Shown: one piece after another, positions 2,528 through 52,952 of the stretch
Layout of the letters: each line of letters begins with the position of its first letter
Numbering within the stretch: the first letter of the stretch is position 1
Origin: an uncultured Verrucomicrobiales bacterium
Lineage (GTDB): Bacteria > Pseudomonadota > Alphaproteobacteria > Paracaedibacterales > CAIOTO01
Direction: 5' to 3'
NCBI GenBank assembly: GCA_964478775.1
Contig: CAYZJC010000005.1
Span: 8,848 to 71,590, forward strand
Length of the DNA stretch: 62,743 nt
Program-made: the position numbers and the translations under genes
The notes under the pieces: model-generated
Told to the model about the DNA's origin: nothing
The model's input: the letters and a program-made list of their open reading frames with translations, nothing else
The model's database searches: none

Positions 2528-3280
2528 TTACCTGTTCTTTTTCTTCTTTTTCTTTTTCTTCTTTTTCTCTTGTGCTTTTTGCGGTGAAATAGGGGTGCAT
2601 TTAGGGGCAGGCATGACGTATTCTTCCCCTAGGCAGATCGCTGTTTTAGAAGGTAAGTCATCGCCTTCAGGTTCTTCTATTAACCTGGTTGATAAGATGT
2701 ATTTCACTTGTGCCTCAACTTGTGCATCACGTTCATTTTCACCTTCAACGTACAATATAGCGGGTGGGTCAAATTCAGGTTCCATATACATCATCGTTTT
2801 GGGTGCTTCTTCTTGTTGATTCACTAACAAGGTTGCAGCTTCACGTTCGACATCTTGAATGAGTGTTGTAACACCAGCTTGCTCGGTATTATCCCCCTCT
2901 GCTTGTTGTCCATCAGTAGCCCTTGTTGAAAATTGTTCTTCCTTTTCTATGGCCAATACGACTGATGCTTCATTTTCTTGCGGTTCCGGGATAAGTGTCG
3001 TGATCTGAGTGGCTGGCACTGCACTGGGGTCTTCTTCTGTTTCATTTTCACCACTTTTCACCAATGTAGTCGGTTGAAAGACTGGTGTTATGAGGTTTAA
3101 AACTGATGACATAAAACTGCTTGGTTTATCGCCAGATGCGGTTTCAGAATCTATAGGTGCGGCAGGAGGAGGGGGCTCTTGCGCATGAGTGGTTGTTGAC
3201 AAACATAAAAAGGGCAAAACAAAAACAATTTTAATTAAAAACTTATATTTTTGTGGTTGCGTCATTTTAAAGATATACAT
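2528..3280 (-). CDS. Secreted acidic hypothetical protein with a C-terminal deca-lysine tail
   Basis: 250-aa ORF. The N-terminus KYKFLIKIVFVLPFLCLSTTTHA|QEPPP is signal-peptide-like. The mature part is E/D/T/P/Q-rich. The C-terminus is ...AQEKKKKKKKKKKNR, with 10 Lys encoded by alternating AAA/AAG. No family recognised. Confidence 0.55.
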   Translation of the reverse strand: MYIFKMTQPQKYKFLIKIVFVLPFLCLSTTTHAQEPPPPAAPIDSETASGDKPSSFMSSVLNLITPVFQPTTLVKSGENETEEDPSAVPATQITTLIPEPQENEASVVLAIEKEEQFSTRATDGQQAEGDNTEQAGVTTLIQDVEREAATLLVNQQEEAPKTMMYMEPEFDPPAILYVEGENERDAQVEAQVKYILSTRLIEEPEGDDLPSKTAICLGEEYVMPAPKCTPISPQKAQEKKKKKKKKKKNR

Positions 3281-3304: not shown

Positions 3305-3856
3305 TTACTGTAAGTCTGGTGATGGTTTATCATCCAATAATGTTGGGGCGTCAATTCCTTTAGGAGGCATAAACAAAACCATTGGTAAGTTGGGGTGGTA
3401 GTCATAGCTTGGCCCAGGTGGGTCAATAGTGATTGAAGGAAGGCCAGTCTGGTCGTACGGGTCATAGGCTTTTACAGTTGCCTGCACCTTAGCGGGCTTT
3501 GGCAATGGCTTTGGTAATGCTTGTGGTGTTTTAGGTGAAGCCGCTTTCGCAAGAACAGGTAGTGACGCAAGTGCTGCCTTTTTCTTCTGTTTTTCTTTTT
3601 TGGGTGCCAGCTTGCTTACCGACTTCACCATTTTCTTTGCCTGTTTCATAGGAGCCTTGGCTGCTTTTTTCAACTTCTTTGAAACGCTACCAATACCTTT
3701 TTTTTTCTTTTTTTTATTTTTTTTATCTGGATTACCTGTATCCGCTTTTTCATTAAGGCGTTGGTCATTATTAGCTGCATAAGACATAAAAGCTGTAAAT
3801 GTAAAACTTACAATAATGAAGAAGCTATATTTTTTTAACGTACCCAAAAAGCTCAT
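3305..3856 (-). CDS. Secreted Lys/Pro/Ala-rich (histone-H1-tail-like) hypothetical protein
   Basis: 183-aa ORF. The hydrophobic N-terminus is YSFFIIVSFTFTAFMSYA|ANND. It is followed by KKNKKKKKKG, KKLKKAAKAPMKQAKKMVK, APKKEKQKKKAAL and LPKPLPKPAK tracts, and a Pro/Asp/Tyr-rich C-terminus. No family recognised. Confidence 0.55.
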   Translation of the reverse strand: MSFLGTLKKYSFFIIVSFTFTAFMSYAANNDQRLNEKADTGNPDKKNKKKKKKGIGSVSKKLKKAAKAPMKQAKKMVKSVSKLAPKKEKQKKKAALASLPVLAKAASPKTPQALPKPLPKPAKVQATVKAYDPYDQTGLPSITIDPPGPSYDYHPNLPMVLFMPPKGIDAPTLLDDKPSPDLQ

Positions 3857-4758: not shown

Positions 4759-5508
4759 TTATCTTTTACTAAACCAACCTGTTTTGGGTTGTGTTTGAGC
4801 TATCGTTTTATTTTGCTGAGTGCTTAAGTTCTTGTTGTTTTTTGCAACTGCATTTGCAGCAGCTTTTCTAGCACTATTATCTGACTTTTGTTGGTTTGTT
4901 AATTGCTTTTGTTTATTTGTATAAAATTTAAGTTCTTCTTTTTTTTGCCCCAACTCAGAACCTAATACCTTAATTTGATTTGCTAAATTAGTAATATCGT
5001 TATTTAACATGGAAATAATTTCATTGGCATTTTGCATTTGCTGCTGCATGGCATATTGGTCTTGTTGCATAAGTTCTTGCAGACGACCATTCGAATTTGG
5101 CCCCATGTTTTGCATGCCGTTATTGTAACCTTGGTTAAAATTTCCACCGCCTGGTGCGCCGTTGAAACCACCATTGGAGCCACCACCAAAGTTGTTATTA
5201 TTTTGGCCGAAGTTTCCACCACCGTTAAAGCCACCACCGCCTGGTGCGCCGCCGAAACCACCATTGGGGGCACCACCAAAGTTGTTATTGTTATTAAAGT
5301 TGTTGCTGGGGGGGGCAAAGCCGCCGCCGCCTGGTGCGCCGCCGAAACTGCCATTGGGGGCACCACCACCGCCATAGTTATTGCTTTGGCCATAGTTTCC
5401 ACCGCCTCCACCGCTGCTTCCACCACTAAAGCCACCAAATCTACTGCCGCCACTACAGTATGGTATAAGCAATGTCATTATAAGAAGGCATTTAAGTACA
5501 AAGTGCAT
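4759..5508 (-). CDS. Secreted Gly/Asn-rich (FG-dipeptide repeat) protein with a Q/N-rich coiled-coil C-terminus
   Basis: 249-aa ORF. The N-terminus is MHFVLKCLLIMTLLIPYCSGG. About 115 aa of G/N/F/A/P repeats follow (GGAPNGSFGGAPGGGGF...), then QELMQQDQYAMQQQMQNANEIISMLNNDITNLANQIKVLGSELGQKKEELK. No family recognised. Confidence 0.55.
   Translation of the reverse strand: MHFVLKCLLIMTLLIPYCSGGSRFGGFSGGSSGGGGGNYGQSNNYGGGGAPNGSFGGAPGGGGFAPPSNNFNNNNNFGGAPNGGFGGAPGGGGFNGGGNFGQNNNNFGGGSNGGFNGAPGGGNFNQGYNNGMQNMGPNSNGRLQELMQQDQYAMQQQMQNANEIISMLNNDITNLANQIKVLGSELGQKKEELKFYTNKQKQLTNQQKSDNSARKAAANAVAKNNKNLSTQQNKTIAQTQPKTGWFSKR
5147..5416 (-). repeat. Three imperfect tandem copies of a 90-bp (30-aa) unit inside the Gly/Asn-rich gene
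   Basis: The core cgcctggtgcgccgccgaaaccaccattgggggcaccacc recurs with an exact 90-bp period; ctggtgcgcc occurs at 5151, 5241 and 5331. The peptide units are roughly GGAPNG(S/G)FGGAPGGGGF-x13. Confidence 0.85.
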
Positions 5509-9032: not shown

Positions 9033-12000
9033 ATGAAAAAAGTTACCGCTCACTCTATTGCGCTTGCAATTTTACTTACCTCTTCAACCCTTGTTAATAT
9101 TGCCGTTTCTGCAGTTCTTTCATCTCCTGCAGCTCCTGGCGGTGATGGACCATCTGTGATTCCTTCTTCCTCACCACAAGCTGCTGCCCCTGCAACGTCA
9201 GTGGCTCCTGTGGCGGCAACTCCAGCAGCTACTCCAGCAGCTACTCCAGAAAATAAAGAAGAAGCTAAAAAAGAAGCATCTGGTGGGCTTAATATTTCTG
9301 TATGTCAATTAAAAGAGTCAGGCATGTTAGGCAGAGCATTAGGGGAAGGTTACGGTAAAGACTGTGTAACGCAAGCTAGAAAAGACGCTCTCCTTAATGC
9401 CATAAACAACATGGATGATGAAAACACACGCGAAGAAGTTAGAAAACTATTTGCAGTCAAACCATGGTATCGTGTCTTCTTACCAGCGCCATTTTCAATG
9501 GATGATTATAGTCAAATAGCTAATGTATTTAAAGTGGCAAGCGCACAACCACTCATTCAAGGTCTGCAAGGTATTAAAGCCGCTGCTGATTCATATAAAC
9601 AGTCAGCGAATGTTTCTGACCATAACACCAATGCTGCAAATGCAGAGGCCAATAAAACCGCTGATGATGTTAATACCCGCCTTAAAACAGCAGAACACAT
9701 TCTTGAAAACGAAGAAAAACCAGTATTAAACTTTACTAAAACTGATGTAGGTAGTGCACTTCACTATTTAAAATTATTTTTCATGAACAAAACTTTGTCT
9801 GAGAAATCTATTTTTGATGAGAGTTTAGGTTCAAAAGCCCACATAGAAGACTTTTTAAAGAACTACAATAAAGAGAGTGATGAAGCATCTTATAAAAAGA
9901 ATTTAAAATATGCATATATACAAACAACGTATGATGCTTATAATGCTGCATGGAAAAAAGTCGTGTTAACTGCGGCTACATTGTCTTTATATTCATCACA
10001 ATTAAAAGATTTAGAAACTGCCCTTACAGACTTAGACGAAGACGTGATTGATGAAATTATTGAAAAAGTCAATGGCATTGAGTTGATTAAGAAAGATATA
10101 GGTAAAATTGAGCCACGTCGTTTTGCAGAAATCATTTCTAAAATCAATGACGAGCTTTCCTTTGATAAGGGTAAGTATCACAACAGAATTATATATATAG
10201 ATGATAGAGAAGTCACAACAGAACCTGAACAAAAGAGAATTTTAATTAAAATTAAACAAGAGACTTTTGAATACGTTAACAAAAATATAAATAGTCAAGA
10301 AATTAAAGACATTCAAGAGCAAATTGAAGAAGTTGTTTCAAAGGTTGGGGAATTGCATCCACGTTATAGAAAAGGGCGCGTTCACCACGTCAAACTGAGT
10401 GCACAATTATTAGATGCTATTATCACGACAGATAAAGCACAAGTGAACCAGGCGTCAGAAAATAATATTTTAGAAAATGAACCGCTAAAAGAAAAAGTTT
10501 CAAACCGTAAACTTGACAATTTGCAGGCTAACATTAAGGCAGTTCTTGCTTTTGCAAAAGAATGTGCGCACCTTGACGTGAAACCTATGTGGTTACCCAG
10601 TATTGTGTCTGCAATGCTTGACCACGATGTGGATGCAAGCCAAATAGAAAAAACAAAGCATGCGGAATTTATTACCCTGCTTGCAAACAAGTTAAGCAAT
10701 ATGCGCGTGCCAGCAGAAAATAACGCTGCAAATAAAAAATCACCATTAGTCCATGGCCAAAAGGATGCAAAAAAAGTGATGGACGCAATTGTTCAACATG
10801 AATCATTCAAGGCTGAACCTTATATATTGCTTGAACTTGTCAATGGTGCCATAGACATAAAAGACCTTCTTCCTGCTGATGTAATAGACAATGATGATGA
10901 AGTCAAAGCAACTGCAGAAAAGCCAGTGTCTGAGCTTGACAAAGTTATTGAGATTATCAATAAAACAAGCAAAGACAACATTAGACCAGCCCTTAACAAA
11001 ATTTTAGAAATTAAATATGCCGAACAACAAGGAAAAGCATGGGCTAAAACAAAAAGAATCGCCGCAAAGTTTTGGAGATGGTTAAAGCGCGATAAAGGCA
11101 TGGTAACCTGGATGCAAAAAAACCACGGTATTGTTGATGGTATGAATAATAGGGCTGCAGCTGTCTACCCCGCTATGAAAGAAGGAATGAATGCTGCCGC
11201 AATTAAATTTAATGAACTTAAACAAAAACGTCAGGCTAATGCACAAGCAAGTGCTGTAGGGGCAGATGATGAAGGCAGTGCAGTTGAGATGAGTTCTCCA
11301 AAGGTTGCGCACACACAACAAGCGGGAGTGGCTCAGCAGGATGAGCAAGAGCTGTCGCTAGCGCAAAAAAAGCAAGTCTTAGAAGATTTACTGAACAGTA
11401 ACGCAAACAGGAATGAAGGCCCACAGCAACCTCAAAATCAACCTGAAGTGGTTGTAGCAAGTGGACCCAGTGTATCTTCACCCACACGTTCTGCTTTATC
11501 TGATGCGGTTCTCAATCAAATTAAAACGCGCCAAGCTATTCACAATGCCAGCATTGAATCTTTAGAGAATCACGTAGCTGACAATCAACCACAAAATAGT
11601 GCTGAACATCCAAGAGGCACAATAGATAATAATGTCCTAGAGGAACTGAAAGCTAAGGCTCAAAAAGATCGATCAGATAAAATACAAAAGCTTGAAGAAA
11701 AAAGGCTCAAACAACAAGCATCATCAAATGTTAATCCACAAGCAAAAGAATTGGCTGCTAACGCAAAAGAATTGGAAGAAAAAAGGCAGAAAAAGCTTAA
11801 AGAAGCGGAAGTATTAGAAAGTCTCCAACGCCAATTAGCACAACTTCAACAGGCACAAAATAGCCAAGTAGATAGTGTAGGTGGTGACCGTCTACCCTCA
11901 CAAGCAGAGTTGGTAACTCAAATCAGTGAACTTGAGAAGCAGCAACTTAATGCCAGAGTGTTAAATGATCTAAGACCAAAAGATGAAAAAGAAGCTGTTA

Positions 12001-12458
12001 AACCGTCCGCTAATATACAAGAAATATACAATAATCCGGAAGTTAAAAAAGACGTGTTAGAAATGACCAATAGGATCAGTAGCATCAAAGAAAGCGATGC
12101 AAGCTGGAAGGAACGTGAAAAAAGGAACGCGGAAATAAAAAAGCTAAAAGAAAACTCAGAGCAAGTGTCACCCCAACTTCAAGACCAACAACAGGAGGCC
12201 CCATCAGTAAATCAAGCTAATCAAATAGCTGCAACCACAGCCGATAACAATTTGGTAAGCAACCAACAAGAGGCTGTAAATGACCAACAGACTATGCCAC
12301 AAGTTTCAGAGATGGAAAAAAAACGCCAAGAGGCAGAGAAGAATCAACTAGAAGCCCAAATTCAAGCCCTAGAACCAACTGACCAAGCATCAACCCAACC
12401 CAACCTTCCACAAGATCCCCACCTTCCAACAGGCAACACACCAATTAACAGTCAGTAA
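9033..12458 (+). CDS. Very large (1141 aa) secreted hypothetical protein: helical N-terminal two-thirds and a Q/E/K-rich coiled-coil C-terminal third
   Basis: The SD AGGAAG precedes the ATG. The signal-like N-terminus is MKKVTAHSIALAILLTSSTLVNIAVSA. An Ala/Pro/Thr linker follows (ATPAATPAATPE). The C-terminus contains long E/K/Q heptad-like stretches. No family recognised. Confidence 0.6.
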   Translation: MKKVTAHSIALAILLTSSTLVNIAVSAVLSSPAAPGGDGPSVIPSSSPQAAAPATSVAPVAATPAATPAATPENKEEAKKEASGGLNISVCQLKESGMLGRALGEGYGKDCVTQARKDALLNAINNMDDENTREEVRKLFAVKPWYRVFLPAPFSMDDYSQIANVFKVASAQPLIQGLQGIKAAADSYKQSANVSDHNTNAANAEANKTADDVNTRLKTAEHILENEEKPVLNFTKTDVGSALHYLKLFFMNKTLSEKSIFDESLGSKAHIEDFLKNYNKESDEASYKKNLKYAYIQTTYDAYNAAWKKVVLTAATLSLYSSQLKDLETALTDLDEDVIDEIIEKVNGIELIKKDIGKIEPRRFAEIISKINDELSFDKGKYHNRIIYIDDREVTTEPEQKRILIKIKQETFEYVNKNINSQEIKDIQEQIEEVVSKVGELHPRYRKGRVHHVKLSAQLLDAIITTDKAQVNQASENNILENEPLKEKVSNRKLDNLQANIKAVLAFAKECAHLDVKPMWLPSIVSAMLDHDVDASQIEKTKHAEFITLLANKLSNMRVPAENNAANKKSPLVHGQKDAKKVMDAIVQHESFKAEPYILLELVNGAIDIKDLLPADVIDNDDEVKATAEKPVSELDKVIEIINKTSKDNIRPALNKILEIKYAEQQGKAWAKTKRIAAKFWRWLKRDKGMVTWMQKNHGIVDGMNNRAAAVYPAMKEGMNAAAIKFNELKQKRQANAQASAVGADDEGSAVEMSSPKVAHTQQAGVAQQDEQELSLAQKKQVLEDLLNSNANRNEGPQQPQNQPEVVVASGPSVSSPTRSALSDAVLNQIKTRQAIHNASIESLENHVADNQPQNSAEHPRGTIDNNVLEELKAKAQKDRSDKIQKLEEKRLKQQASSNVNPQAKELAANAKELEEKRQKKLKEAEVLESLQRQLAQLQQAQNSQVDSVGGDRLPSQAELVTQISELEKQQLNARVLNDLRPKDEKEAVKPSANIQEIYNNPEVKKDVLEMTNRISSIKESDASWKEREKRNAEIKKLKENSEQVSPQLQDQQQEAPSVNQANQIAATTADNNLVSNQQEAVNDQQTMPQVSEMEKKRQEAEKNQLEAQIQALEPTDQASTQPNLPQDPHLPTGNTPINSQ

Positions 12459-15582: not shown

Positions 15583-16173
15583 TCAGGCTGGAAAAGCAGC
15601 GTCATCTGCCAGTTCATTGGCAGTATCTTCTTCGTACGCATCAGCTCCATCATTAACTTGGTTTAAAAAATTCATCATGTCGGGGGACAGTAGAAAATTT
15701 AAATTCAGTGCAGCTGTATGATGAAAACCGGGGAAAGGAGGAAGCTCAGTTAAATGTGCAAGGCCTATATTCGTAGGGGAAGGTGTGTTGTCAAATAGAC
15801 TTCTGAGATTTATTGGTTGAGGTCTTGAAATTTCACTGTCGGTATGTGTATTCAAAGGAAGCAAACAGCGGCTTCTTTTAGACACTGGGGTGTGGAATGG
15901 GTCATCATTATTGTTAACGGTAGGTGAAGCTTCTGCATCAAAATCTAACCTCATTGTGCCTGTTGCGTCAAAATCTTCTCCACTTCTTGACCTTTTGGCT
16001 TTTCTTGCAAGCTGTGGAGGCGTAAAATTTTGGGCATTAAGCTGTGGTGTTGGTGTATTAAACTCAGCTACCTGTGTATTTTGCGCTACGTTTTCCATTG
16101 CATTTACAGACGTAAATCCAGTAACGGCAAGCATTAAGCCCAAAGCATATTTTGTATTTTGTAATAAGTTCAT
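15583..16173 (-). CDS. Small secreted hypothetical protein (196 aa)
   Basis: The signal-like N-terminus is MNLLQNTKYALGLMLAVTGFTSVNA|MENV. It has basic patches (RKAKRSRS, SKRSR) and an acidic C-terminus. No family recognised. An antisense ORF (15890..16228) is considered spurious. Confidence 0.5.
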   Translation of the reverse strand: MNLLQNTKYALGLMLAVTGFTSVNAMENVAQNTQVAEFNTPTPQLNAQNFTPPQLARKAKRSRSGEDFDATGTMRLDFDAEASPTVNNNDDPFHTPVSKRSRCLLPLNTHTDSEISRPQPINLRSLFDNTPSPTNIGLAHLTELPPFPGFHHTAALNLNFLLSPDMMNFLNQVNDGADAYEEDTANELADDAAFPA

Positions 16174-16277: not shown

Positions 16278-16604
16278 CTATTGTGCAGGTGCTCCATCTG
16301 CGTCAGTACCACTTACTTCAACGTCCATTGCATTGTCTTCATTATCTGAATCACTATCTTGGAAAAGGTTATTTTGCGCAAATGTGTCTGCTAGTGTAAC
16401 TGGGCTTATGCTTCTTGCTGCTGCCCTGCGTTCAGCAATCGCTGCTCTACGTTCTGCTTTAATATCAAATCTGGAAATATCAAGAGCTCCGGCTCCTTGT
16501 TCTGGCGAGTGTGGTGCAAATTGTTCCATTGCATTTGCAGTTGTAATAAAGTTCGCAATGACAGCTGCGCTTAAAGTGTATGCAATTTTTTGAAAAGAAT
16601 TCAT
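16278..16604 (-). CDS. Small secreted acidic hypothetical protein (108 aa)
   Basis: The start is placed at the ATG at 16604, preceded by AAGGAAG. The signal-like N-terminus is MNSFQKIAYTLSAAVIANFITTANA|MEQF. It contains ERRAAIAERRAAARS and an acidic SDSDNEDN tail. Confidence 0.5.
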   Translation of the reverse strand: MNSFQKIAYTLSAAVIANFITTANAMEQFAPHSPEQGAGALDISRFDIKAERRAAIAERRAAARSISPVTLADTFAQNNLFQDSDSDNEDNAMDVEVSGTDADGAPAQ

Positions 16605-16922
16605 GATTTCTTCCTTATGTGTAAAGTTTCGATTCGTTATACAAATCAAATAGGTATGTTTTTCTAAAAAACAAGGGCTGATATAAAAAATAATTATGAT
16701 TAGTTAATATTTTGTATATCTCCTCCACAGCATCTCACCAACAGTATGTTTTCTGCTGGCTATCTGTGTTCTATGAAAATGAAATTTTATTGCGAAATTT
16801 ATATACCTCATATATTATACACCCTGAATCACCTCGTTTTTTAATACATTATTTATAGTCATGAGGAACAAACATAAAAATTTACGTTTAATGTTTTCTT
16901 TTTTGATATGTAAAATAGTGTA

Positions 16923-17774
16923 ATGGTGAATAACTTTTTAGGTTTTATTTTTTTGGTACGTGTATTTTTATTTTTGCTATCTGTTTTTTTATTAACGGAA
17001 AGCTTTGCCCCAAATGTGTGTCTTGCATCACCCAATAAAACACGCAAAAGCTTTCTTAGCAGGCAAGAAAAATGGGTTGACTGCAGTTTGAAATTTTGCA
17101 GTATCGAACATATTCAACAAGGTCTAGATAGTGGCTTTAGTATTAATGCGAAAAGTAAATGCGGTACGACCTTGCTGATGAGCGCAATTTGTTGCAATAA
17201 TACTGAAGTTGCAGATTTTATATTAAATAAAGGGGCAGATTTTACCCTCGTTGACTTGGAAGGAAGCACCACCCTTCATTGGTGTGCCTTATTTGGCTGT
17301 CTAGAAATTTCAAAGCGTTTACTCGCTATGGGTGCGAACCCAAATCAATCAACCCCGTTAGGAACAACACCCTTAATGCAAACCGTAATTTACAACAAGC
17401 CACATCTCACCAGACAGTTACTTGCGCAACCAGGAATTGATGTAAACGCCTATAATGTGTGTGCAAGCACAGCACTTAGTCAAGCCGTTGCATACAATCA
17501 TATTGAAATAGTAGCGTTGTTATTAGAACATCCAGGTACGCACTATTACCTAACAGACAATCAGCACACGGCAGTTCATGAGTATGCGAAGACTGCTGAA
17601 ATGAAAGGTATATTAAGGCTTCATCGACTTAAACCCTTTTTAGCGTTTTTAAAGGTGTCACAAATTCAAACCCCTTACACGCAAGTGATACTTGGAGAAG
17701 AGATTAAGCTAATGCACACAACAACAATTTTAGAAAACCCAGACCTTACACGTTATGTATGTGGCTTTCTATGA
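16923..17774 (+). CDS. Ankyrin-repeat protein with N-terminal signal-like sequence (ANK-1)
   Basis: The hydrophobic N-terminus is FLGFIFLVRVFLFLLSVFLLTESFA. There are 4-5 ANK repeats (GTTLLMSAICCNNTEVADFILNKGAD, GSTTLHWCALFGCLEISKRLLAMGANPN, GTTPLMQTVIYNK..., STALSQAVAYNHIEIVALLLEHPG). The C-terminal tail is ...KPFLAFLKVSQIQTP...ENPDLTRYVCGFL. Confidence 0.85.
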   Translation: MVNNFLGFIFLVRVFLFLLSVFLLTESFAPNVCLASPNKTRKSFLSRQEKWVDCSLKFCSIEHIQQGLDSGFSINAKSKCGTTLLMSAICCNNTEVADFILNKGADFTLVDLEGSTTLHWCALFGCLEISKRLLAMGANPNQSTPLGTTPLMQTVIYNKPHLTRQLLAQPGIDVNAYNVCASTALSQAVAYNHIEIVALLLEHPGTHYYLTDNQHTAVHEYAKTAEMKGILRLHRLKPFLAFLKVSQIQTPYTQVILGEEIKLMHTTTILENPDLTRYVCGFL

Positions 17775-17807
17775 TTTATTTGATATGAATACAAAAGCAG
17801 GATAGGC

Positions 17808-18641
17808 ATGAATTTTATACGGCTCAAAAGTCTTGCACTACAAGCTCTTTTAATATTACTTGTAAGTTGCCTATATACTGGTGCAGGTCATGCTATGATA
17901 CGACTTGCACTGCAATCCGCTTATTTTGAAAGAACTTGGATTGATCAACACTTTGAGTCATGTAGTATTGAGTCAGCGAAGAAATATATAGATAATGGCA
18001 ATTGCATTAATTTGCAAAGTCCAGCTGGCACAACATTCTTAATGCAGGCAATTATTCATCATCAAATTGAAACTGTTGATTTTATTTTAGATAATGAACC
18101 AGATGTTAATCTTGCCAACAAGATTGGTGGTACAGCTTTGCATTATGCAGCGCAAGCAGGCCTTGAAGAAGTTGCACAAAGACTATTGCAGATGGGGGCA
18201 AACCCTAATGCGAAAAGCTGGATGGGGTGGACCCCTTTAATGTCTGCAGAAACGTATGAGCAAATTAATGTCCTTCGACAATTGCTAATGCACCCACAAG
18301 TGGATGTCAACGCTCAAGACTGTAGTGGCTATACAGCTCTAATGTATGCTGCGTTAAGCAATAAATGTGAGATTGCTGCAATACTACTTAACCACCCGTC
18401 AATTGATATTCATATTGTGGATGATTTAGCGTGTATGGTCGACCTCAGTATTCTTACACCTGAAATGAGGGGGGAATTTCGGTTTCACACCTTAAGTCCC
18501 TTTTTAAAATTTTTACAAAGTTCACAAATTCAAACGCCGACAACGTCCATGATGCCTGCGCAAGTAGAAAGAATCCCTCATGTGATAAAAGCTCTAGAAA
18601 ACCGAGACCTCACACGTTTTTTGTGTGAATTTATTGGCTAG
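17808..18641 (+). CDS. Ankyrin-repeat protein with N-terminal signal-like sequence (ANK-2; tandem paralogue of ANK-1)
   Basis: The SD AGGA precedes the ATG. The N-terminus is LKSLALQALLILLVSCLYTGAGHA. ANK repeats include GTTFLMQAIIHHQIETVDFILDNEPD and GGTALHYAAQAGLEEVAQRLLQMGANPN. It is colinear with ANK-1 throughout (about 40-45% identity by eye). The tail is ...SPFLKFLQSSQIQTP...ENRDLTRFLCEFIG. Confidence 0.85.
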   Translation: MNFIRLKSLALQALLILLVSCLYTGAGHAMIRLALQSAYFERTWIDQHFESCSIESAKKYIDNGNCINLQSPAGTTFLMQAIIHHQIETVDFILDNEPDVNLANKIGGTALHYAAQAGLEEVAQRLLQMGANPNAKSWMGWTPLMSAETYEQINVLRQLLMHPQVDVNAQDCSGYTALMYAALSNKCEIAAILLNHPSIDIHIVDDLACMVDLSILTPEMRGEFRFHTLSPFLKFLQSSQIQTPTTSMMPAQVERIPHVIKALENRDLTRFLCEFIG

Positions 18642-24622: not shown

Positions 24623-25984
24623 ATGCAGGAGACTTGGACCATGACAACAGCAGCGTCGATACCGGCTGAATCAACAAAAAATTGGCAGGACAATGAAGTG
24701 TTAAAAGAATGCATCACCAAGTCCGTGCATGACTTTTGCGCAAACATAGAAGAAAGCGATTCCGTAAGACATGACTCGCCAGCCATTTATGTTGCAAGTG
24801 AATATCCAAATCTAGCAATGGATAAAAAAATGGTGTTGCAATCCTTGCTTCATGAACATTGGCAAGCGCTTGCGACAGTTTCCCATGAGGAATTACAAGG
24901 TCTTACCAGAACTTTATTTACTGAATTTGAAAAGTTAGGCTTGAACCGTGAATGGTTTAGACAAGCCCAATGCTTTATCTTAGAATCTGTAACTGACTTT
25001 TATGCCTCGCATCTTCATAAAAGGTCATATGGCAACACGTCTTCCACAAGCCAACAACTGCGAGACATTCAAAAAATCATCTTAAACGGTATAGCAGACT
25101 TTTACTCTTTAAGTTCAGAGCGAAGAATCGACAACCTGCTCAATGACAAAAATTATCTCATTTCTGTGTTAAAGCAAAATATTGCCAATGTTATTAATGG
25201 TATTGCTATATCAGGTAATGACTTATCAGGCACAACCAGCCGTGTGTTAGCGTCTTCAAAATCAACATATGGAAAAGCTGTGGCTATGGTGTCAATGTCT
25301 GAACAGTTTTCACAAAATGTTTCCTCTGTATCTATGGCAACGCAAAACCTTTCCACTTCAATTGATGAAATCGCAACGCAGCTTTCAAAAGGTGCTAATA
25401 TGACCCGCAAAAGCGCGTCAGAAGCTAAAAAAGCACAAGAAGTGGTACAAAGCCTATCTAGTGCTGCACAAAAAATTGGGGAAGTTGTTAAAATTATTAA
25501 TGAAATCGCCAATCAGACAAATCTATTGGCGTTAAATGCAACAATTGAAGCTGCGCGTGCAGGTAATGCCGGCAAAGGCTTTTCTGTTGTTGCATCTGAA
25601 GTGAAAAACCTTGCTGGTCAAACAGCCAAAGCAACAGATGAAATCACCAAACAAATTAAAGAAATGCAAGATGCCACAGAAAAAGTGGTTACATCGATTA
25701 AAGAAATGACAACCACCATTGCAGATATCAATAGCGGCACCTCTATTATTTCATCTGCGGTCAATGAACAAGGCAGTGCTACGCAGGAAATTTTCAGAAG
25801 CATTGCCCATGTGGCATCATCAAGTGTAACGTTTATTAACCTAATTAATCAGCTAAAATCTTTCACTGGTGAAACAGCGAATGCGACCCAAGAAAGTTTA
25901 AACATCGCCATTAAGGTGACAGACCAGTCCTTATATTTAAGAGAATCGCTCCAGCAAATTATTGACTTTATGTCTTCAAATTAA
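24623..25984 (+). CDS. Soluble methyl-accepting chemotaxis protein with an N-terminal globin-coupled-sensor-like domain
   Basis: The SD AAAGGAAG precedes the ATG. The signalling hairpin tip is [38 protein letters not shown] see no TM helices. The N-terminal segment ...[26 protein letters not shown] resembles the HemAT globin motif. Confidence 0.85.
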
Positions 25985-38918: not shown

Positions 38919-39746
38919 ATGTTTATCTTAAATAAGAATGTATTTATTAATGTGTGTTTTTTGTGTTGCATCTGCGTCACTGAAACGATCGCAGAGCCGT
39001 CGCCCCAATTGGTAGAACAAGAAAGGTTAGATACAGCCCTTGTTGTTGCGCTTCATTATTCTGACCAATATGGTGCCATTGAATTATTAGACGCTGGTGC
39101 CAATCCAAATGTTGCTGACAAATCAAACAAATCAGCTTTGTGTATTGCCCTTGTTAAAAAACTAGAAGATGCAGCCATTTTGTTAATTGAAAAAGGGGCT
39201 GACTTAAATGTATGCAGTTGGAATGGGACACCTGCTTTATGGCTGTCTCTGCGGTTTGGCACCCCAAAGGTGGCCCTTTCCATGATTGAACATGGTGCTG
39301 ATCCGAATGCTGTTTATATGTCTGATTCCATATTGTACACCAGCATTCTGCACCAGTGGCCACGTGTGGCGATATCTTTGTTGGAAGCAGGTGCGAACCC
39401 CAATATTGGTGAAGACCCACTTTATATGCATTCTCCTCTTATGATAGCAGGACTATTCCAACAACATGAAGTCATCAAAAAATTAATTGATTGCGGGGCT
39501 AACTTAAATGCCACAACGGCACAGGGCCTTACATTATGGGACATCGTTGATGAACACACAGCAAAATTTATTGTGCGTTATCGTCAAAAGGCAGCGACTA
39601 TGCCCTTTTTAATGGCGCTTCATGGGTCAGGCTACCAAGGGCCACGTAGCTTGACGCCAGATCCAAGCCCACCTCACACAGTTGAAAGCAAAGATGCTGT
39701 GTTGTACTGTAAGGAATTAGTTCGCTACATAGCAAAGTACCTGTGA
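38919..39746 (+). CDS. Ankyrin-repeat protein with N-terminal signal-like sequence (ANK-3)
   Basis: The SD GAGTGAGGA precedes the ATG. The N-terminus is VFINVCFLCCICVTETIA|EPS. ANK repeats include SALCIALVKKLEDAAILLIEKGADLN, GTPALWLSLRFGTPKVALSMIEHGADPN and SPLMIAGLFQQHEVIKKLIDCGANLN. The tail is ...MPFLMALHG...KELVRYIAKYL. Confidence 0.85.
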   Translation: MFILNKNVFINVCFLCCICVTETIAEPSPQLVEQERLDTALVVALHYSDQYGAIELLDAGANPNVADKSNKSALCIALVKKLEDAAILLIEKGADLNVCSWNGTPALWLSLRFGTPKVALSMIEHGADPNAVYMSDSILYTSILHQWPRVAISLLEAGANPNIGEDPLYMHSPLMIAGLFQQHEVIKKLIDCGANLNATTAQGLTLWDIVDEHTAKFIVRYRQKAATMPFLMALHGSGYQGPRSLTPDPSPPHTVESKDAVLYCKELVRYIAKYL

Positions 39747-41325: not shown

Positions 41326-42897
41326 ATGAAAAAAATCCATTTAAATTTAACAAGATTAGCACTTGGCACGACATCTTACCTAATTGGGTGTGTGTGCCAT
41401 GCTGCTGCAATCTCAGCTACTATTCAGGTAGAGGATAATATAGTGGCCACACAAATTGAAGGAACCCTTTGTGTTGCTCAAGATAAGGCATTACATAAAA
41501 CAGGTAATGGGACGTTCTTTTTAAGTGGTGACCATAGTGGTGCAGGAAAGTTAGAAGGTGACTTTTATGCGGATGAAGGTATAGTTGCATTTGACCATGC
41601 TGGCTCACTTGGTGCTGGTGTGATCATGGCAAGTGGTACTTCCTTACAAGCTTTGGCTGATGATGTTGCATTAGCAGGTGACATTAGCCTAGCAGATGGT
41701 GCATCCATAGTAATAGATGCCAATGACCACCCTTCTGAATTTGTAGGAGAAATTAAACAAATGGGAATTAATCCTGTAACTATTGTGTTTGAAAATAGTG
41801 GCACGCAAATGACTGACCTTAAATTGCATAGCGATTATACAGCTGCTGATGCAAATGCAGATACCATGATTATTAGTGGTAAGGTGAATATCAGCATTGA
41901 CGGTAATAGCAATGCGAGTTCAGCTATGACGGTTGGGCAATTTCGTGCACTCAATGGAAGCTTAATGTTTAGGTCAGGCTTTGGAGTTTACGGGGGATTT
42001 ATAGTTGGGAATTTTGCTGCACCCTTCACAGACACGACTTACGATAATGAAATTGTTTATCAGGCTGACGAATACCAGGTGTTTTATATAAATTATGAAG
42101 AAAAAAATTATAATGTTAATCTTATGTATAGAGAGCAAGATAAACTGTCAAATTACACGCCCGAGGAAATTTTTTATGACGGTGTTACGATGGCTAATGG
42201 ATTTAGATTATCTTCAGCCAATATTACTTATGATACGTTAGCAGATTTAACAGATATTGATACGACGCAAGGTCTTTATAGCTTCTCCAATGATGGTAAT
42301 CGTAAGCTTTGGCTAACGAGTGGCAATAATACACGTCAAGAAGCTTATGATAGCAATAATACGCGTCTTACAATAGCTTATTTTAGTGGAAATATTTATA
42401 TTCCACAAGGTGGTAGTATTCAAAATGGATTTTACAGTGTTCAAAATACTGTCGAGGCAATGAATCATAACCCTACCTCTGTTGATGATAGTTTAATTTA
42501 TAGTCTAAGTGGTTTGAGTTCTAACTCTATTCTTTACTTAAATTCAGACCTTCCAGCATCTATTAAACGTGTTGAGATGTATCAGCCAAGACACAGGAAT
42601 GTTGTATACATGAGCTCAGCAGGTTTAGGTGCTGGCTTCTATATAGCCCCAACTGGCGACTTTAACATTGAGATAGATTTGTTGCCTGAATATGAATCTG
42701 TTTCTTATTATAGTGATGCAGATGATATTAATGGTTTATTGTATCCACTCCCTCGGTATAAAAGTACAATTCAAGTTCAAGGAGGAGAGGGAGTAAAAAA
42801 GCGTTTAGCGATGAACGTTGATATGTTAGATGGTTCAAAGCTTTCTATTACAGATAATGCTGAACTGCCTCACTTGAATATCAAATCAGTCGTATAA
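41326..42897 (+). CDS. Secreted hypothetical protein (523 aa): beta-helix/autotransporter-passenger-like N-terminal half and a Tyr/Asn/Ser-rich C-terminal half
   Basis: The signal-like N-terminus is MKKIHLNLTRLALGTTSYLIGCVCHA|AAI. Segments such as KTGNGTFFLSGDHSGAGKLEGDFYADEGIVAF and ALAGDISLADGASIVIDAN are passenger-like. It ends ...LPHLNIKSVV. No family recognised with confidence. Confidence 0.45.
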   Translation: MKKIHLNLTRLALGTTSYLIGCVCHAAAISATIQVEDNIVATQIEGTLCVAQDKALHKTGNGTFFLSGDHSGAGKLEGDFYADEGIVAFDHAGSLGAGVIMASGTSLQALADDVALAGDISLADGASIVIDANDHPSEFVGEIKQMGINPVTIVFENSGTQMTDLKLHSDYTAADANADTMIISGKVNISIDGNSNASSAMTVGQFRALNGSLMFRSGFGVYGGFIVGNFAAPFTDTTYDNEIVYQADEYQVFYINYEEKNYNVNLMYREQDKLSNYTPEEIFYDGVTMANGFRLSSANITYDTLADLTDIDTTQGLYSFSNDGNRKLWLTSGNNTRQEAYDSNNTRLTIAYFSGNIYIPQGGSIQNGFYSVQNTVEAMNHNPTSVDDSLIYSLSGLSSNSILYLNSDLPASIKRVEMYQPRHRNVVYMSSAGLGAGFYIAPTGDFNIEIDLLPEYESVSYYSDADDINGLLYPLPRYKSTIQVQGGEGVKKRLAMNVDMLDGSKLSITDNAELPHLNIKSVV

Positions 42898-43077: not shown

Positions 43078-44217
43078 ATGAGATTAAAAAGAAATGTTCT
43101 TGCATTGGCTGTTTTATTAACAAGCTTTATTGCAGATAATGGCTTTGCCGTAAATAATCACAACCAAATTGTCAGACCAAATCAATGGTTTGAGGCAGCA
43201 GTGTCTGGTGACACGGACACAATGAAAAGGGCTATTTCACAAAGGTTTGATATTAATATGCGTCACCAGAAGCTTGATCAAACTGCTTTATCTATGGCCA
43301 TTGCAGAAAATAAGGTTGAGGTAGTGAAACTATTGCTCAATCATAATGCGAGTTTAGTGGAGCTGGACTCAGCTAACCTTACTGCTTTCAGTAGATTCAT
43401 GAAGTATTCACCTAACTGCTCTGAAATTGCAAGCCTCTTGTGTGCAAAAGGTGCAGATCTGGCAGAGCTTAATATGATTAGTCCTTATCGCAGAACACGT
43501 TTGTATGACATGCTTAGTTATTCTAAAGAACACACAAAAACATTAGATATATTACTATCACAAGAAAATAGCAAAATAATAAATCTTGATGAAAAAGATA
43601 TATTGGAGCTTTCTTTGCTGCATAGGGCAGCATTGTCTGGACACCATAACATTGTAAAGCTACTCATTGAACGTGGCGCAAATGTAATGACAAAATCAAA
43701 AACAGGTGAGACACTTTTATTTTTCACGACAAATATTTCAAATCAAAACGAGAAGCAGCACGATTATCATGGTTTGATTATTAACAATGATAATCGAGCA
43801 GAAAAAGTTTCACACTTGCATGAAATCATAAATGCTTATATTGATAATGGTGTTGACATTAATCACCAAAACCAGTGGGGCTTCACTGCTGCAATGTGGG
43901 CAATGGCTTACTGTAAAACTGCCTCAAAATCTAATAACCTGGCCACTGTTAAAGGCTGGTATAACATTGCATGGTACTTAATTAAACACCCGAAGTTTAA
44001 TGTCTGGCTTCAAGACAACAAGCATAGAACAATCTTAGAATACGCCTCCATTTCTGTTGTGATGAGAAAAGAAATTCTTTGGAAAATGTTAATCATCAAT
44101 GAAGGAAGTGCTTTACAGCAACAGCACACAACTGCACCGTCACAAAAGCGCACAACAGCACAGTATGAAGTTTTTAAAAATTCTCCATTGGTTCGTAAGA
44201 TCGTTGATTTTTTATAA
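43078..44217 (+). CDS. Ankyrin-repeat protein with N-terminal signal-like sequence (ANK-4)
   Basis: The SD AGGAAA precedes the ATG. The N-terminus is MRLKRNVLALAVLLTSFIADNGFA|VNN. ANK repeats include QTALSMAIAENKVEVVKLLLNHNASL, LSLLHRAALSGHHNIVKLLIERGANV and FTAAMWAMAY. The tail ends ...NSPLVRKIVDFL. Confidence 0.8.
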   Translation: MRLKRNVLALAVLLTSFIADNGFAVNNHNQIVRPNQWFEAAVSGDTDTMKRAISQRFDINMRHQKLDQTALSMAIAENKVEVVKLLLNHNASLVELDSANLTAFSRFMKYSPNCSEIASLLCAKGADLAELNMISPYRRTRLYDMLSYSKEHTKTLDILLSQENSKIINLDEKDILELSLLHRAALSGHHNIVKLLIERGANVMTKSKTGETLLFFTTNISNQNEKQHDYHGLIINNDNRAEKVSHLHEIINAYIDNGVDINHQNQWGFTAAMWAMAYCKTASKSNNLATVKGWYNIAWYLIKHPKFNVWLQDNKHRTILEYASISVVMRKEILWKMLIINEGSALQQQHTTAPSQKRTTAQYEVFKNSPLVRKIVDFL

Positions 44218-44361: not shown

Positions 44362-45306
44362 CTAAAAGTCAAAAAATGAGGTATCAGGTCTAAAATGAAC
44401 ATGTATATGTTGAAAAGAATACATATCTTCTGGCCACTCAATGTGAAAACTTGACGTCATCTGAAAATCTGAAATTACGTTATCAGTAAATATCTCACCC
44501 ATAATGACACCAGGTTCCTGGTTAATAGTGACATCAGGTTTCTGAATCCTCACAATAGGAAGTGGCTTTACAAAAAGTGTTGTGTAAGGGTTAGCGGCAA
44601 AATATGTTCTAAGCGCATTTTTTATATCGTGATTTAAATACTCTTGAGGGGTTATCATCACACAGTGTGGGGGTTCGTTATGTGTCCAACTAGCAAGCTT
44701 TGAAAACTCACAAACGCAAGTAGGTATTTCTGCGTCAATTTTTGCTGCTACTTGTTCAAAATTACTTTCACTTGCTATTGTAAAATGGCTAAGAAAATAG
44801 GCCTGCCTTTCACGACTTGAATCAATAAAGTCTTTTAAATATTTAAGTCTTGGTTCGTTTCGTATTAAACGTAACAGACTTGGAAAAAACGGGTCATCTT
44901 CACTGATGATCTTCACATCGTTCAACTGAAGGATATCTTGAACCGTCATTATAGTCGGCTTTATTCCCTGTTTTTCCATAGGTAGGAACATCATTTTAGA
45001 GGATAGAATAACTGGTTTATTATTTAAATTCACTTTTAAATAATAATAAATATTTCCGGTTCCCTGATGATTGTACTTTGCTTTCCAAAGGATGTCTAGA
45101 AATCCTATATTTGAGTGAAATGCATGTATATTGGATACTAAACCATCAGAACAATTATCAGAACTATCAACTGCTTCAAGCGTTGAAATGGGTTTATTTA
45201 ATGCTACTGGGTTATCAATTGATAAATCCGCATCTACAGCATAAGAAAAATGGGTTAATAGCAATAACGAGGCTATAAAGCTTTGTTTGAAAAAATTGTC
45301 TTTCAT
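44362..45306 (-). CDS. Secreted hypothetical protein (314 aa) immediately downstream of the 1509-aa gene
   Basis: The ATG at 45306 is preceded by AAGGAG with a 5-nt spacer. The signal is MKDNFFKQSFIASLLLLTHFSYA|VDA. It ends ...HFRPDTSFFDF. No family recognised. Confidence 0.5.
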   Translation of the reverse strand: MKDNFFKQSFIASLLLLTHFSYAVDADLSIDNPVALNKPISTLEAVDSSDNCSDGLVSNIHAFHSNIGFLDILWKAKYNHQGTGNIYYYLKVNLNNKPVILSSKMMFLPMEKQGIKPTIMTVQDILQLNDVKIISEDDPFFPSLLRLIRNEPRLKYLKDFIDSSRERQAYFLSHFTIASESNFEQVAAKIDAEIPTCVCEFSKLASWTHNEPPHCVMITPQEYLNHDIKNALRTYFAANPYTTLFVKPLPIVRIQKPDVTINQEPGVIMGEIFTDNVISDFQMTSSFHIEWPEDMYSFQHIHVHFRPDTSFFDF

Positions 45307-45402
45307 AAAAACTCCTTTTGGTATGAACATGACACTATTAAAAACAAAGACCCTAAAACTGTCGTAGCTTTAAGGTCTGTGTCAATTAATTTTAATTAAA
45401 TT

Positions 45403-51083: not shown

Positions 51084-52952
51084 ATGGCGTCAATACACAT
51101 TGGAACAAAACATCTATTAAGGTCGGCATATAGTGCCTACCAGGGGAAATTAACGCTTTCACAACAAAATGTGACCCAAAAAGATGTGGAAAACTATGTT
51201 TCTCAAGATGTGGACATGAGAAGTGCCTCCGCAGGTGGGTATACATATGGCGTAAAACTTATGACTGTGCGCCAAAAGGTGAATGAATCACTCTTTGCGA
51301 ACTTAAGACAAGCAAATAACACACTTGGTGGTTTAAAAATTGCGATGGCGTATCGAGAAAATGTAAATAAAATTTTCAGTGATAAGCAGCAACAACAGTC
51401 TTTGTCTCATCTTGCAAGAGCAGTGGCAGACTCACTTAAAACATATGCATCTCGTTCAACGGATATGGTGGCGGCCCAAAATGCTGTGGCAGATATGCAA
51501 ACATTAACAAAAAATATTCAGTCAATGAGTAACAGCATTCAGCAAGAACGTGCTAATGCCGACACAGACATTGGTGAGACTGTTAACACAATTAATTCTT
51601 TACTAGAAAAAATACGACAAGTGTCAACAGATATATCAATGCGTGCTGAATCTGCCGATGGGGCTGCTTTTCCTTTTATCAATGAACGACGAGATTTGCT
51701 TCAACAATTATCTGCCTATATTCAAATTGACGAGAGGGCTTATAGTCCTTTAGATTTAAAAAACTTTGAATTGTTTGATGTTGATGGCAATACCTTAATT
51801 CAAAATAATTTATGTTCACAACTTGTTTTTAAAAACACTTTTGCCTTTTCCACACCCACAAATGGTTATGATATTCAGTTTGTTGATATGTCTGGGGTCC
51901 AAAAGAAATATTCAATTATGAATGATGGGCGTCAAGGGGCCTTGCATGAATTGGTGAAAGCGCGCGATGTTATATTGCCACAAATGCAACAAGAACTCGA
52001 TGCGTATACAGGCACACTACGTGACACCTTCAACCAAATTCATAATGAAGGTCTCGCGCTTAAGCCAGCAACGTCATTAACAAGTTTTAAAACAGTGCCA
52101 GATGGTCATATTATTGGTGATGGGCATGGTTCCCTTAATCTTGCAGAAGATATGAAACTATCAGGTTCAGGTACGGTGCGTTTTGCTGTTATTAATCTTA
52201 ATGATGGTATTATGCAAAGCAAGTTTGACCTTGAATTGTCTGCGGATATGTCACTTGGTGATATCATCACAAGAATTAATGATGCTGACATTGGGCTTAC
52301 TGCATCACTCACACCAGATGGTAAGTTTAACATTGAATCTAACGACCCCGCATTTGGGGTGGCGATCAGTAATGCTGAAGAAGGAAAGATGCCTAAAATA
52401 TGTGCGAACGATGTCTACAATCCAACAAGAGCCTTTGGCTTTTCTCACTTTTTTGGTTTTAACAATTTGTTTGATAGTGACACCAATGTCTTAGGGGATT
52501 CCCTAGATGGCGTGTCAGAAACATTTCGTGTGCGCCCAGATATTATCAGTAATGCTAAACGTTTAGCGACAGGCCAACTGAGCTTAAAGAAAGATGTTTT
52601 TGAAAAAGTATTACATGTTGGTGACGTGTCTAATTTGGAAAAATTATCTAATGCTTTAAGTATTGGGGTGTCTTTTCAAAGAAATACATTGGTTCAAGCC
52701 CAGGTCACAACGTTAGAAGGTTACGCTAGTGGGTTTGCAAAACGTAATATAACTGAAGAGCAAAGCCTGCTCAGTGTTATACAAAAACAAAACTATGCAT
52801 TTGAAGGTTTGTCACAAGAACTGAGTGATTTAAGTGGTGTGGATGAACAATATGAATTGTCTATTTCATTAGACTTGGTGACTTCTATTAGCTATATCAC
52901 ACGTATGATGTCTTTTAATAAAGAATTAGATGATAGGGTTTTGAGTATATGA
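51084..52952 (+). CDS. flgK: Flagellar hook-associated protein 1
   Basis: 622 aa. The N-terminal rod/hook-family helix is divergent. The C-terminal ...LSDLSGVDEQYELSISLDLVTSISYITRMMSFNKELDDRVLSI matches the FlgK C-terminal pattern (SGV..DEE...L...Q.aY.A). Synteny with flgL. Confidence 0.85.
   Translation: MASIHIGTKHLLRSAYSAYQGKLTLSQQNVTQKDVENYVSQDVDMRSASAGGYTYGVKLMTVRQKVNESLFANLRQANNTLGGLKIAMAYRENVNKIFSDKQQQQSLSHLARAVADSLKTYASRSTDMVAAQNAVADMQTLTKNIQSMSNSIQQERANADTDIGETVNTINSLLEKIRQVSTDISMRAESADGAAFPFINERRDLLQQLSAYIQIDERAYSPLDLKNFELFDVDGNTLIQNNLCSQLVFKNTFAFSTPTNGYDIQFVDMSGVQKKYSIMNDGRQGALHELVKARDVILPQMQQELDAYTGTLRDTFNQIHNEGLALKPATSLTSFKTVPDGHIIGDGHGSLNLAEDMKLSGSGTVRFAVINLNDGIMQSKFDLELSADMSLGDIITRINDADIGLTASLTPDGKFNIESNDPAFGVAISNAEEGKMPKICANDVYNPTRAFGFSHFFGFNNLFDSDTNVLGDSLDGVSETFRVRPDIISNAKRLATGQLSLKKDVFEKVLHVGDVSNLEKLSNALSIGVSFQRNTLVQAQVTTLEGYASGFAKRNITEEQSLLSVIQKQNYAFEGLSQELSDLSGVDEQYELSISLDLVTSISYITRMMSFNKELDDRVLSI

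Follow-up and report, generated by a model that had tools for sequence, protein, structure and literature searches.

Four genes in the 62,743-nucleotide stretch of contig CAYZJC010000005.1 that we analysed as a whole (the window) encode ankyrin-repeat (ANK) proteins, P1 to P4, which share a C-terminal module of about 55 amino acids (aa) composed of a cap helix, a linker and a terminal amphipathic helix. This helix-linker-helix tail is previously undescribed, and by the similarity of their sequences the four proteins are paralogues in a very small, lineage-restricted protein family. Our preferred reading, to which we give somewhat less than an even chance, is that they are Sec-exported ANK paralogues with a diversified contact surface, the constant tail acting as a docking helix.

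Four ankyrin-repeat paralogues

All four open reading frames (ORFs) are present on the + strand where a preliminary description of this DNA had placed them. P1 (16923-17774, 283 aa) and P2 (17808-18641, 277 aa) are the upstream and the downstream gene of a tandem pair, and P3 (38919-39746, 275 aa) and P4 (43078-44217, 379 aa, the divergent member) are solitary genes amid housekeeping genes. Pfam recognises ANK in each of them (E = 2.5e-21 for P1 and 3e-26 for P2), with matches to Ank_2 (PF12796), Ank (PF00023), Ank_3 and Ank_4 far above the gathering thresholds (E = 1.7e-13 to 3.1e-26); apart from ANK, no Pfam family was found for the full-length proteins at E <= 1. The number of four was also right, as a six-frame scan of the window with the ANK consensus gives exactly P1 to P4 and no further ORF. 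Of the common architecture that had been proposed, the leader, the ANK repeats and the shared tail stand, while the figure of 4-5 repeats does not apply to P4, which has more of them, with insertions. Across the six members that we were able to find (see below) the repeat number varies from about 4 to about 12. PADLOC reported only generic ANK models for the family.

The ANK stacks of P1 (aa ~61-221, 17103-17585, +; also detected by Pfam) and of P2 (aa ~54-214, +) are modelled by AlphaFold2 with a predicted local distance difference test score (pLDDT) above 90, the former as paired ANK-type helices. The top Foldseek matches are designed ankyrin repeat proteins (DARPins), gankyrin and ankyrin-B/G, that is, ANK stacks only. 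P1 and P2 align from residue ~45 through the last residue with 42% identity (E = 3e-63), and by this alignment they are clearly tandem paralogues. P2 is furthermore present on a 2.8-kb Logan contig (L001, run SRR12712864).

Anatomy and conservation of the tail

The cap helix (consensus ELRFHxLKPFLxFL-x-S-x-x-Q) continues from the last repeat and caps it. It is followed by a disordered, unconserved linker of 15-25 aa and by the terminal helix (consensus D-L-[TVM]-R-[YFK]-phi-[CAV]-x-[FY]-[LI]), which ends at the C-terminus or 1-2 residues short of it. Two independent AlphaFold2 models, of P2 and of P1, each calculated from the six-member alignment, agree on this arrangement: the pLDDT is above 90 in the ANK region, about 80 in the cap helix, below 50 in the linker and 40-50 in the terminal helices, which are undocked. 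In P1 (+ strand), the cap helix covers aa 225-245 (17595-17657, ...LRLHRLKPFLAFLKVSQ..., pLDDT ~88 falling to 60), the linker aa 246-264 (17658-17714, pLDDT < 50) and the terminal helix aa 265-283 (17715-17771); the latter ends in ENPDLTRYVCGFL and is predicted as two helices, 265-269 and 273-282, with low pLDDT and undocked. The corresponding parts of P2 (+ strand) are the cap helix at aa 218-238 (18459-18521, PEMRGEFRFHTLSPFLKFLQS, pLDDT ~82 falling to 68), the linker at aa 239-256 (18522-18575, pLDDT ~41) and the terminal helices at aa 257-277 (18576-18638), which end in ALENRDLTRFLCEFIG and are predicted at 257-263 and 266-276 with a pLDDT of 41-49. The tail of P3 (aa 216-275, 39564-39743, +) has an MPFLMAL block, a Pro-rich linker and the terminal KELVRYIAKYL. 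In P4 (aa 327-379, 44056-44214, +) the upstream block is degenerated and the terminal SPLVRKIVDFL is kept. The C-terminal peptides quoted in the preliminary description and their coordinates are thus correct, and so is the statement that three of the four proteins share a PFL-x-x-L block: P4 has lost it, and the block is conserved in five of the six members.

In all six members five columns of the tail are invariant (R, L, Q, L, R), two of which, L and R, belong to the terminal D-L-x-R. Between P1 and P2, 15 of 25 residues are identical in the cap helix plus the following SQIQTP, 2/16 in the linker, 9/15 in the terminal helix and 58/134 in the ANK region, so that the cap and terminal helices are the most conserved parts of these proteins (60% versus 43% in the ANK region). 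In designed ANK binders it is the target-contact positions that are randomised. At these DARPin-type contact positions P1 and P2 are identical in only 2 of 24 cases, versus 56 of 110 framework positions (Fisher p = 8e-5). The picture that emerges for the family is one of a putative recognition surface that is variable, set between two constant ends.

Treated as helices, the terminal 12-mers have an amphipathic character and hydrophobic moments between 0.44 and 0.74; the value of 0.73 for P2 is reached by 1.5% of shuffles. The terminal 9-mer pattern occurs in four of the 200 window ORFs of at least 50 aa, which are P1 to P4 only, and always C-terminally. Likewise, a hidden Markov model (HMM) of the tail finds only P1 to P4 among the window ORFs, the next best match having E = 0.25. 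With an HMM built without P3 and P4, the P3 tail scores 14.9 bits, which none of 5000 shuffles reach, and the P4 tail only 4.1 bits, which is reached by 70 of 5000 shuffles (p ~0.014). On the other hand, the last nine residues of P4 agree with six of the nine residue classes defined without P4 (chance ~1.5e-4 per register), and the 239 control proteins reach four of nine at most. Since the profile score of P4 is weak and its terminal classes fit, we regard P4 as a divergent member that has kept the terminal helix and lost the PFL block.

At their 3' ends, P3 and P4 are encoded by codons other than those of P1 and P2, which places the conservation at the protein level; we therefore rejected the idea that the tail motif is the by-product of a DNA element. 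As a separate observation, the final codons of P2 (LTRFLCEF) contain a hairpin that resembles a terminator (18610-18628, +; TCACACG-TTTTT-TGTGTGA and then a T-rich tail), 22 nt ahead of the stop codon of the convergent atpD. Its stem is formed from the ACA (Thr) and TGT (Cys) codons, and it is specific to P2, being absent from P3 and P4.

Relatives beyond the window

An exhaustive HMMER profile search with the four-tail profile against 1.84 billion representative proteins (threshold E = 0.001) retrieved six proteins: the four queries and two others, P0124 (543 aa) and P0125 (346 aa). Each of the two is an ANK protein whose extreme C-terminus is formed by the tail (...ELRFHSLKPFLSFIEGSQIQ...SDLTRFLCEYID in P0124, ...ELRFYPNKFFLTFLSSAGFQGP...ALENSDLMRYVCEFL in P0125). 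The NCBI contigs that encode them, of 132,940 and 154,325 bp, are distinct from the one of the window (71,590 bp), so that conservation of the tail extends beyond this contig. All tail-bearing proteins, six out of six, are ANK proteins, and all six are singletons at 90% identity.

Other collections added nothing. The GTDB representative genomes, scanned with the tails of P1 and P2 and the four closest tails, gave pattern matches of which none was confirmed, in a collection that apparently does not include the genome of the window itself, and scans of JGI metagenome contigs and of IMG/VR gave zero further relatives. With full-length P2 as query, a word-indexed search of 5.8e9 proteins gave only generic ANK matches over about half of the query that leave the tail uncovered, and it omitted P1 (42% identical and present in the collection). 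Queried with the six-tail alignment, the same search gave no match at all, the tails themselves included, and its negatives for this family carry little weight. In summary, there are six members among about 15 billion public proteins, and the family is real, rare and lineage-restricted.

N-terminal leaders

The leaders were judged by a heuristic scan (charge, hydrophobicity, cleavage-site pattern) together with a check for Shine-Dalgarno sequences upstream of Met1. In P2, P3 and P4 the scan shows a positive start, a hydrophobic core of 12-15 residues, an uncharged core of 12-24 residues and small-residue, A-x-A-like sites, and Shine-Dalgarno sequences back the Met1 starts of all three. The leader of P2 (aa 1-29, 17808-17894, +), preceded by AGGA, has two K/R, a 24-residue uncharged run, a GHA↓M site and a lipobox-like LVSC (aa 18-21, 17859-17870); P2 is the sole member matching [LVI][ASTVI][GAS]C, which is a regular-expression match only. 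The leader of P3 (aa 1-25, 38919-38993, +) has a TIA↓EP site and a GAGGA Shine-Dalgarno, and that of P4 (aa 1-24, 43078-43149, +) a GFA↓VN site, three K/R and AGGAAA. In P1 the leader (aa 1-35, 16923-17027, +) reaches a Kyte-Doolittle mean of 3.12 over 10 aa, with candidate sites TES↓F and CLA↓S, and translation might alternatively start at a TTG in codon 11, giving MVRVFLFLLSVFLLTESFA. The leader of P0125 resembles those of P2 to P4 in the same scan.

Leader hydrophobicity is kept in five of the six members without conservation of sequence, which argues that the leader is functional. A Sec-type signal has a positively charged n-region, a core of 7-15 hydrophobic residues and small residues at -3/-1; by this heuristic, the leaders of P2, P3, P4 and P0125 fit it, and they may be either cleaved or retained as an anchor. 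P3 and P4 look like substrates of signal peptidase I, and P2 may be a lipoprotein processed by signal peptidase II. As an aside, the LVSC of P2 together with its Met30 could in principle yield both exported and leaderless forms; a commentary on Enterobacter Tli implies exported plus leaderless forms for that protein (PMC10294624).

A proposed docking helix on putatively exported ankyrin-repeat proteins

Among the "eukaryote-like" proteins of intracellular bacteria, ANK proteins are the commonest. The family described here bears on the little-understood question of how those with leaders reach their targets. If our preferred reading is correct, Sec would export the proteins into the cell envelope, which is the only step that the sequence directly suggests. 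There, the ANK groove, with contact positions almost fully diverged between P1 and P2, would bind different targets, and the tethered terminal helix would be the docking peptide with which all members bind, in trans, the same partner. We put slightly more weight on a component of the bacterial envelope as this partner (which would retain, anchor or pass on the proteins for further export) than on a host protein; the partner, like any onward delivery of the proteins to the host, is inferred. The conserved cap and terminal helices are split by a freely drifting linker, and this argues for a discrete function of the tail and not for passive inheritance.

Several points weigh against the docking helix. 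No partner, experiment or co-occurring gene backs it. The AlphaFold2 confidence of the terminal helix is low, from an alignment of six sequences, so its helicity is itself a prediction. Depending on the origin of P0124 and P0125, the family may extend over several species or be confined to the contigs of a single genome. The leader of P1 is atypically long and a clear Shine-Dalgarno sequence is missing before its Met1, P2 has an in-frame Met30 (17895-17897) just past the leader that might give rise to a leaderless form, and the N-terminus of P0124 is weak or truncated, without a clear leader. Finally, mature P1 would contain nine Cys (3.6%), which is awkward in an oxidising periplasm.

A possible role as periplasmic or immunity proteins

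Alternatively, the family could consist of periplasmic housekeeping or immunity proteins similar to RARP-1, AnkB or Tli that bind bacterial proteins, e.g. lipase-type toxins of a type VI secretion system (T6SS), in which case the tail would be a C-cap plus an inherited appendage. We consider this unlikely. Precedents are not scarce, and the earlier remark that Sec leaders on ANK effectors are atypical was overstated. R. parkeri RARP-1, P. aeruginosa AnkB and a Bdellovibrio ANK protein reside in the periplasm (PMC9553169); a Tle6 T6SS lipase always has a signal-bearing ANK protein as its immunity partner, Tli being one with six repeats (PMC11470151); and a signal peptide is predicted in 79 of the 126 ANK proteins of Babela massiliensis (PMC4378268). 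The cited Sec-leader ANK proteins that have been localised are thus periplasmic, except for an earlier report on R. typhi RARP-1 (PMC9553169, PMC11470151). Moreover, T6SS are common in Holosporales, where Sec and a reduced T6SS are typical and type I, type IV or type V secretion systems (T1SS, T4SS, T5SS) are found in some Paracaedibacteraceae (PMC9992710). The tandem duplication of P1 and P2, the lipobox of P2 and the fast divergence of contact residues would also fit immunity arrays.

RARP-1, AnkB, the Bdellovibrio protein and Enterobacter Tli have an N-terminal Sec-type signal followed by an ANK stack, as is predicted here, and are located in the envelope where tested. However, the helix-linker-helix tail is reported for none of them, and their sequence similarity to the family here is of the generic ANK kind only. 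RARP-1 differs further in its central disordered region and C-terminal ANK repeats. Tli is encoded beside its lipase, whereas the genes here have no such neighbour: no toxin or lipase gene is adjacent to them, and no orphan among the neighbours has a lipase-like GxSxG or a Pfam hit. With respect to the Tli type, the signal plus ANK architecture is compatible and the adjacent lipase is missing, although orphan immunity genes are possible. P3 and P4, as solitary genes, also fit this explanation poorly, and an inherited appendage does not account for two helices that are more conserved than the ANK region itself with a drifting linker in between.

A possible second-step sorting signal

The tail could instead be a secretion or sorting signal that is read in a second step by an outer-membrane route (TolC-dependent, similar to a type II secretion system, T4SS from the periplasm, or vesicles), with the ANK proteins reaching the host cytoplasm as effectors. 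Two-step export of this kind, with a Sec leader followed by a T4SS, is used by pertussis toxin. The constant ends and variable middle of the proteins suit such a signal, and so does the position of the ANK genes amid other orphan genes with leaders. The clade consists of cytoplasmic symbionts of protists, for which signal-bearing lineage-specific proteins have been proposed as host factors (PMC8163844, PMC4378268). In addition, R. typhi RARP-1 has been reported as Sec-TolC secreted, while its R. parkeri counterpart is periplasmic (PMC9553169). Among the 158 predicted secreted proteins of Ca. Bodocaedibacter vickermanii, a symbiont of Bodo from the Paracaedibacteraceae, there is an ANK protein with a signal (PMC8163844). 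The ANK proteins of Babela and Bodocaedibacter resemble those here in that the bacteria are intracellular and protist-associated and the proteins are lineage-specific, have predicted signal peptides and are presumed to interact with the host; a common C-terminal module has not been described for them, and the family here is tiny, with six members.

Generic signals normally mark diverse cargo. Here, all six tails found among the 1.84e9 proteins sit on ANK proteins and at least nine other leader-bearing orphan proteins of the window lack the tail, which weakens the case for a generic sorting signal. The window ORFs that were scanned include no gene of a secretion system. Overall, we regard this explanation as unlikely too, and a little more so than a periplasmic role.

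A signal of the T1SS type can be rejected. The published criteria are the lack of a Sec leader, much LDAVTSIF and little KHPMWC in the last 60 aa, an acidic pI and few Cys, and Orientia Anks are substrates of this system (PMC4315096). The proteins here have leaders, a C-terminal pI of 8.6-9.7 in five of six members, 12-27% KHPMWC and up to 3.6% Cys; the LDAVTSIF content of the tails (47-60%) lies inside the T1SS range and does not discriminate.

A more far-reaching reading is that the tail is a new dedicated recognition signal that carries the Sec-exported ANK proteins of Holosporales-like symbionts across the outer membrane into the protist cytoplasm, or else a new minimal helix that binds a host adaptor and is missed by profile searches. 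We think this improbable, slightly more so than a sorting signal in general.

The tail and E3-ligase adaptors

According to the preliminary description, the hydrophobic spacing of the terminal 9-mer resembles helix 1 of an F-box and the end of a SOCS-box, in a match that is short. The tail might then mimic an E3-ligase adaptor and recruit Skp1 or Elongin B/C of the host, with the ANK stack choosing the substrates. The layout is identical to that of the poxviral ANK/F-box (PRANC) and ANK/BC proteins, the Orientia Anks and the ASB proteins, in which an ANK stack is likewise followed by a short constant C-terminal box (PMC6232478, PMC4315096). The poxviral, Orientia and ASB proteins have no Sec leader, however, and the family here fails their defining motifs and profiles.

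The comparison with the PRANC, F-box and SOCS-box profiles that had been proposed was run, and similarity was not detected. With the six tails alone, Pfam gives nothing at E <= 10 and NCBIfam gives nothing. As positive controls we used six F-box and four SOCS-box segments of 40-50 aa, which score between 1e-8 and 1.3e-18 and between 1.7e-5 and 6e-14, respectively (PF12937, PF00646, PF07525). Since these segments score well, boxes of 40-50 aa are detectable by the Pfam test. In hhalign, the tail alignment has a probability of 0.3% against the F-box profile and of 0.3% against the SOCS-box profile, no better than the negative control of F-box against SOCS-box (0.5%). The sole stretch that hhalign aligns, TILENPDLTRYVC on GLPLPTRLKDYLE (the LPxxLxxYL part of the SOCS-box), speaks for the analogy and is without statistical support. 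A PDB profile search with the tail found no Skp2, FBXW7, ASB or SOCS chain and only weak PRP24 noise.

Protein 010 of ectromelia virus, an ANK/BC protein, has a cryptic truncated BC box that domain searches missed (PMC6232478), and it serves as a precedent for adaptor mimicry that profiles would overlook. Because such truncated boxes exist, we also tested the published minimal motifs, which are [TSP]Lx3[CSA]x3-phi for the BC box and phi-P-x2-phi-x3-phi for the poxviral F-box core (PMC6232478). The BC box is found in none of the six tails, nor is LPxE or the Cul5 box LPxP (0/6 each). The poxviral F-box core has one match, at residue 7 of the P0125 tail, which lies in the cap helix and not in the terminal helix. 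It is true that the terminal helix has a hydrophobic face at i/i+4/i+8 and often a Cys, but this Cys is five residues past the invariant Leu and not four, and it is absent from P3 and P4. As the proteins stop 0-2 residues past the motif, that is, after one helix, there is no room for F-box helices 2-3, which contact with Skp1 would require, and a Sec leader would deliver them to the periplasm and not straight to the host cytosol. On profiles, hhalign and motifs we therefore rejected membership in the F-box (PF00646/PF12937), PRANC (PF09372) and SOCS/BC-box (PF07525) families. The analogy is unsupported and should stay out of the annotation, and adaptor mimicry in general appears very improbable.

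The least probable explanation of all is lipidation of a Cys close to the C-terminus by host prenyltransferases, which would anchor the proteins in membranes of the host. The model would be Legionella AnkB, a protein that combines an F-box, ANK repeats and a CaaX box. Like AnkB, two of the six members here join ANK repeats to a C-terminal end with a Cys: P1 ends in CGFL (17760-17771) and P0125 in CEFL, with Cys at -4 and X = L (geranylgeranyl-type). In P2 and P0124, however, the Cys lies at -5, and P3 and P4 have none. Its position is thus unconserved, the invariant residues are L and R and not C, the family has a predicted Sec leader and no F-box, and the proteins would have to exit the periplasm first.

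Two further candidates were set aside. A membrane-targeting helix of the MinD type is unlikely, given terminal 12-mers with a net charge of -2 to +2 and a mean hydrophobicity near 0. Inspection by eye only showed no motif of the PDZ/tail-specific-protease, LC3-interacting region (LIR), dileucine or peroxisomal targeting signal 1 (PTS1) kind that is consistent across all members.

Significance of the family

Signal-bearing ANK proteins of symbionts are known. The helix-linker-helix tail is new, and its interest is modest unless it proves to be a sorting or adaptor signal. What makes the family useful is that it is a clean natural experiment, in which a fast-evolving binding surface is combined with two conserved tail blocks on a drifting linker. 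If the terminal helix is a true sorting or docking signal, it would provide a sequence handle for exported host-interaction proteins in symbionts of the Holosporales type, and if the tail is a true delivery or adaptor module, it would have no described counterpart in Proteobacteria. On the other hand, the tail is maybe only a family-specific structural appendage, and this would be an ordinary paralogous ANK family.

Organism and genomic neighbourhood

Holosporales are intracellular symbionts of protists. The closest named relatives of the MutS protein encoded in the window are from a metagenome-assembled genome of Ca. Paracaedibacteraceae (57% identity) and from Ca. Finniella inopinata (50%), the best match of any kind having 59%, and the window also holds an alphaproteobacterial-type ProS, flgK, a chemoreceptor gene and an ATP synthase operon. 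Taken together, this points to a deep-branching alphaproteobacterium related to the Paracaedibacteraceae (Holosporales). Chemotaxis and flagellar genes are located at 24623-25984 (+, a methyl-accepting chemotaxis protein), 51084-52952 (+) and 52999-53949 (+), the latter two being flgK and probably flgL. Genes for motility and chemotaxis are therefore retained, although the nearest named relatives are intracellular Paracaedibacteraceae.

Several orphan genes with leaders surround the ANK genes. Directly upstream of the P1-P2 pair, on the opposite strand, there are two small ones (15583-16173 and 16278-16649, both -), whose leaders end in ...NA↓ME (MNLLQNTKYALGLMLAVTGFTSVNAMEN / MNSFQKIAYTLSAAVIANFITTANAMEQ) and are followed by acidic low-complexity sequence with basic clusters of the KRSR type. 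The alignment of the two is confined to the leaders (E = 0.001), and Pfam assigns no family to either. Further orphans with leaders, none matching NCBIfam, form a cluster at 2528-3280, 3305-3856 and 4759-5508 (all -); one of these proteins ends in a run of ten lysines (...QEKKKKKKKKKKNR), and in another, Gly and Ser abound after a Cys that might be lipoprotein-like (...LLIPYCSGGSRFGG...).

Four large orphans, at 9033-12458 (+), 41326-42897 (+), 44362-45330 (-) and 45403-49932 (-), encode proteins of 1141, 523, 322 and 1509 aa that start with a hydrophobic leader and belong to no Pfam family, and three of them flank P4. The 322-aa protein has FFDF as its C-terminus. The 523-aa protein is Gly/Asn/Ser-rich and resembles a beta-helical passenger domain without the barrel.

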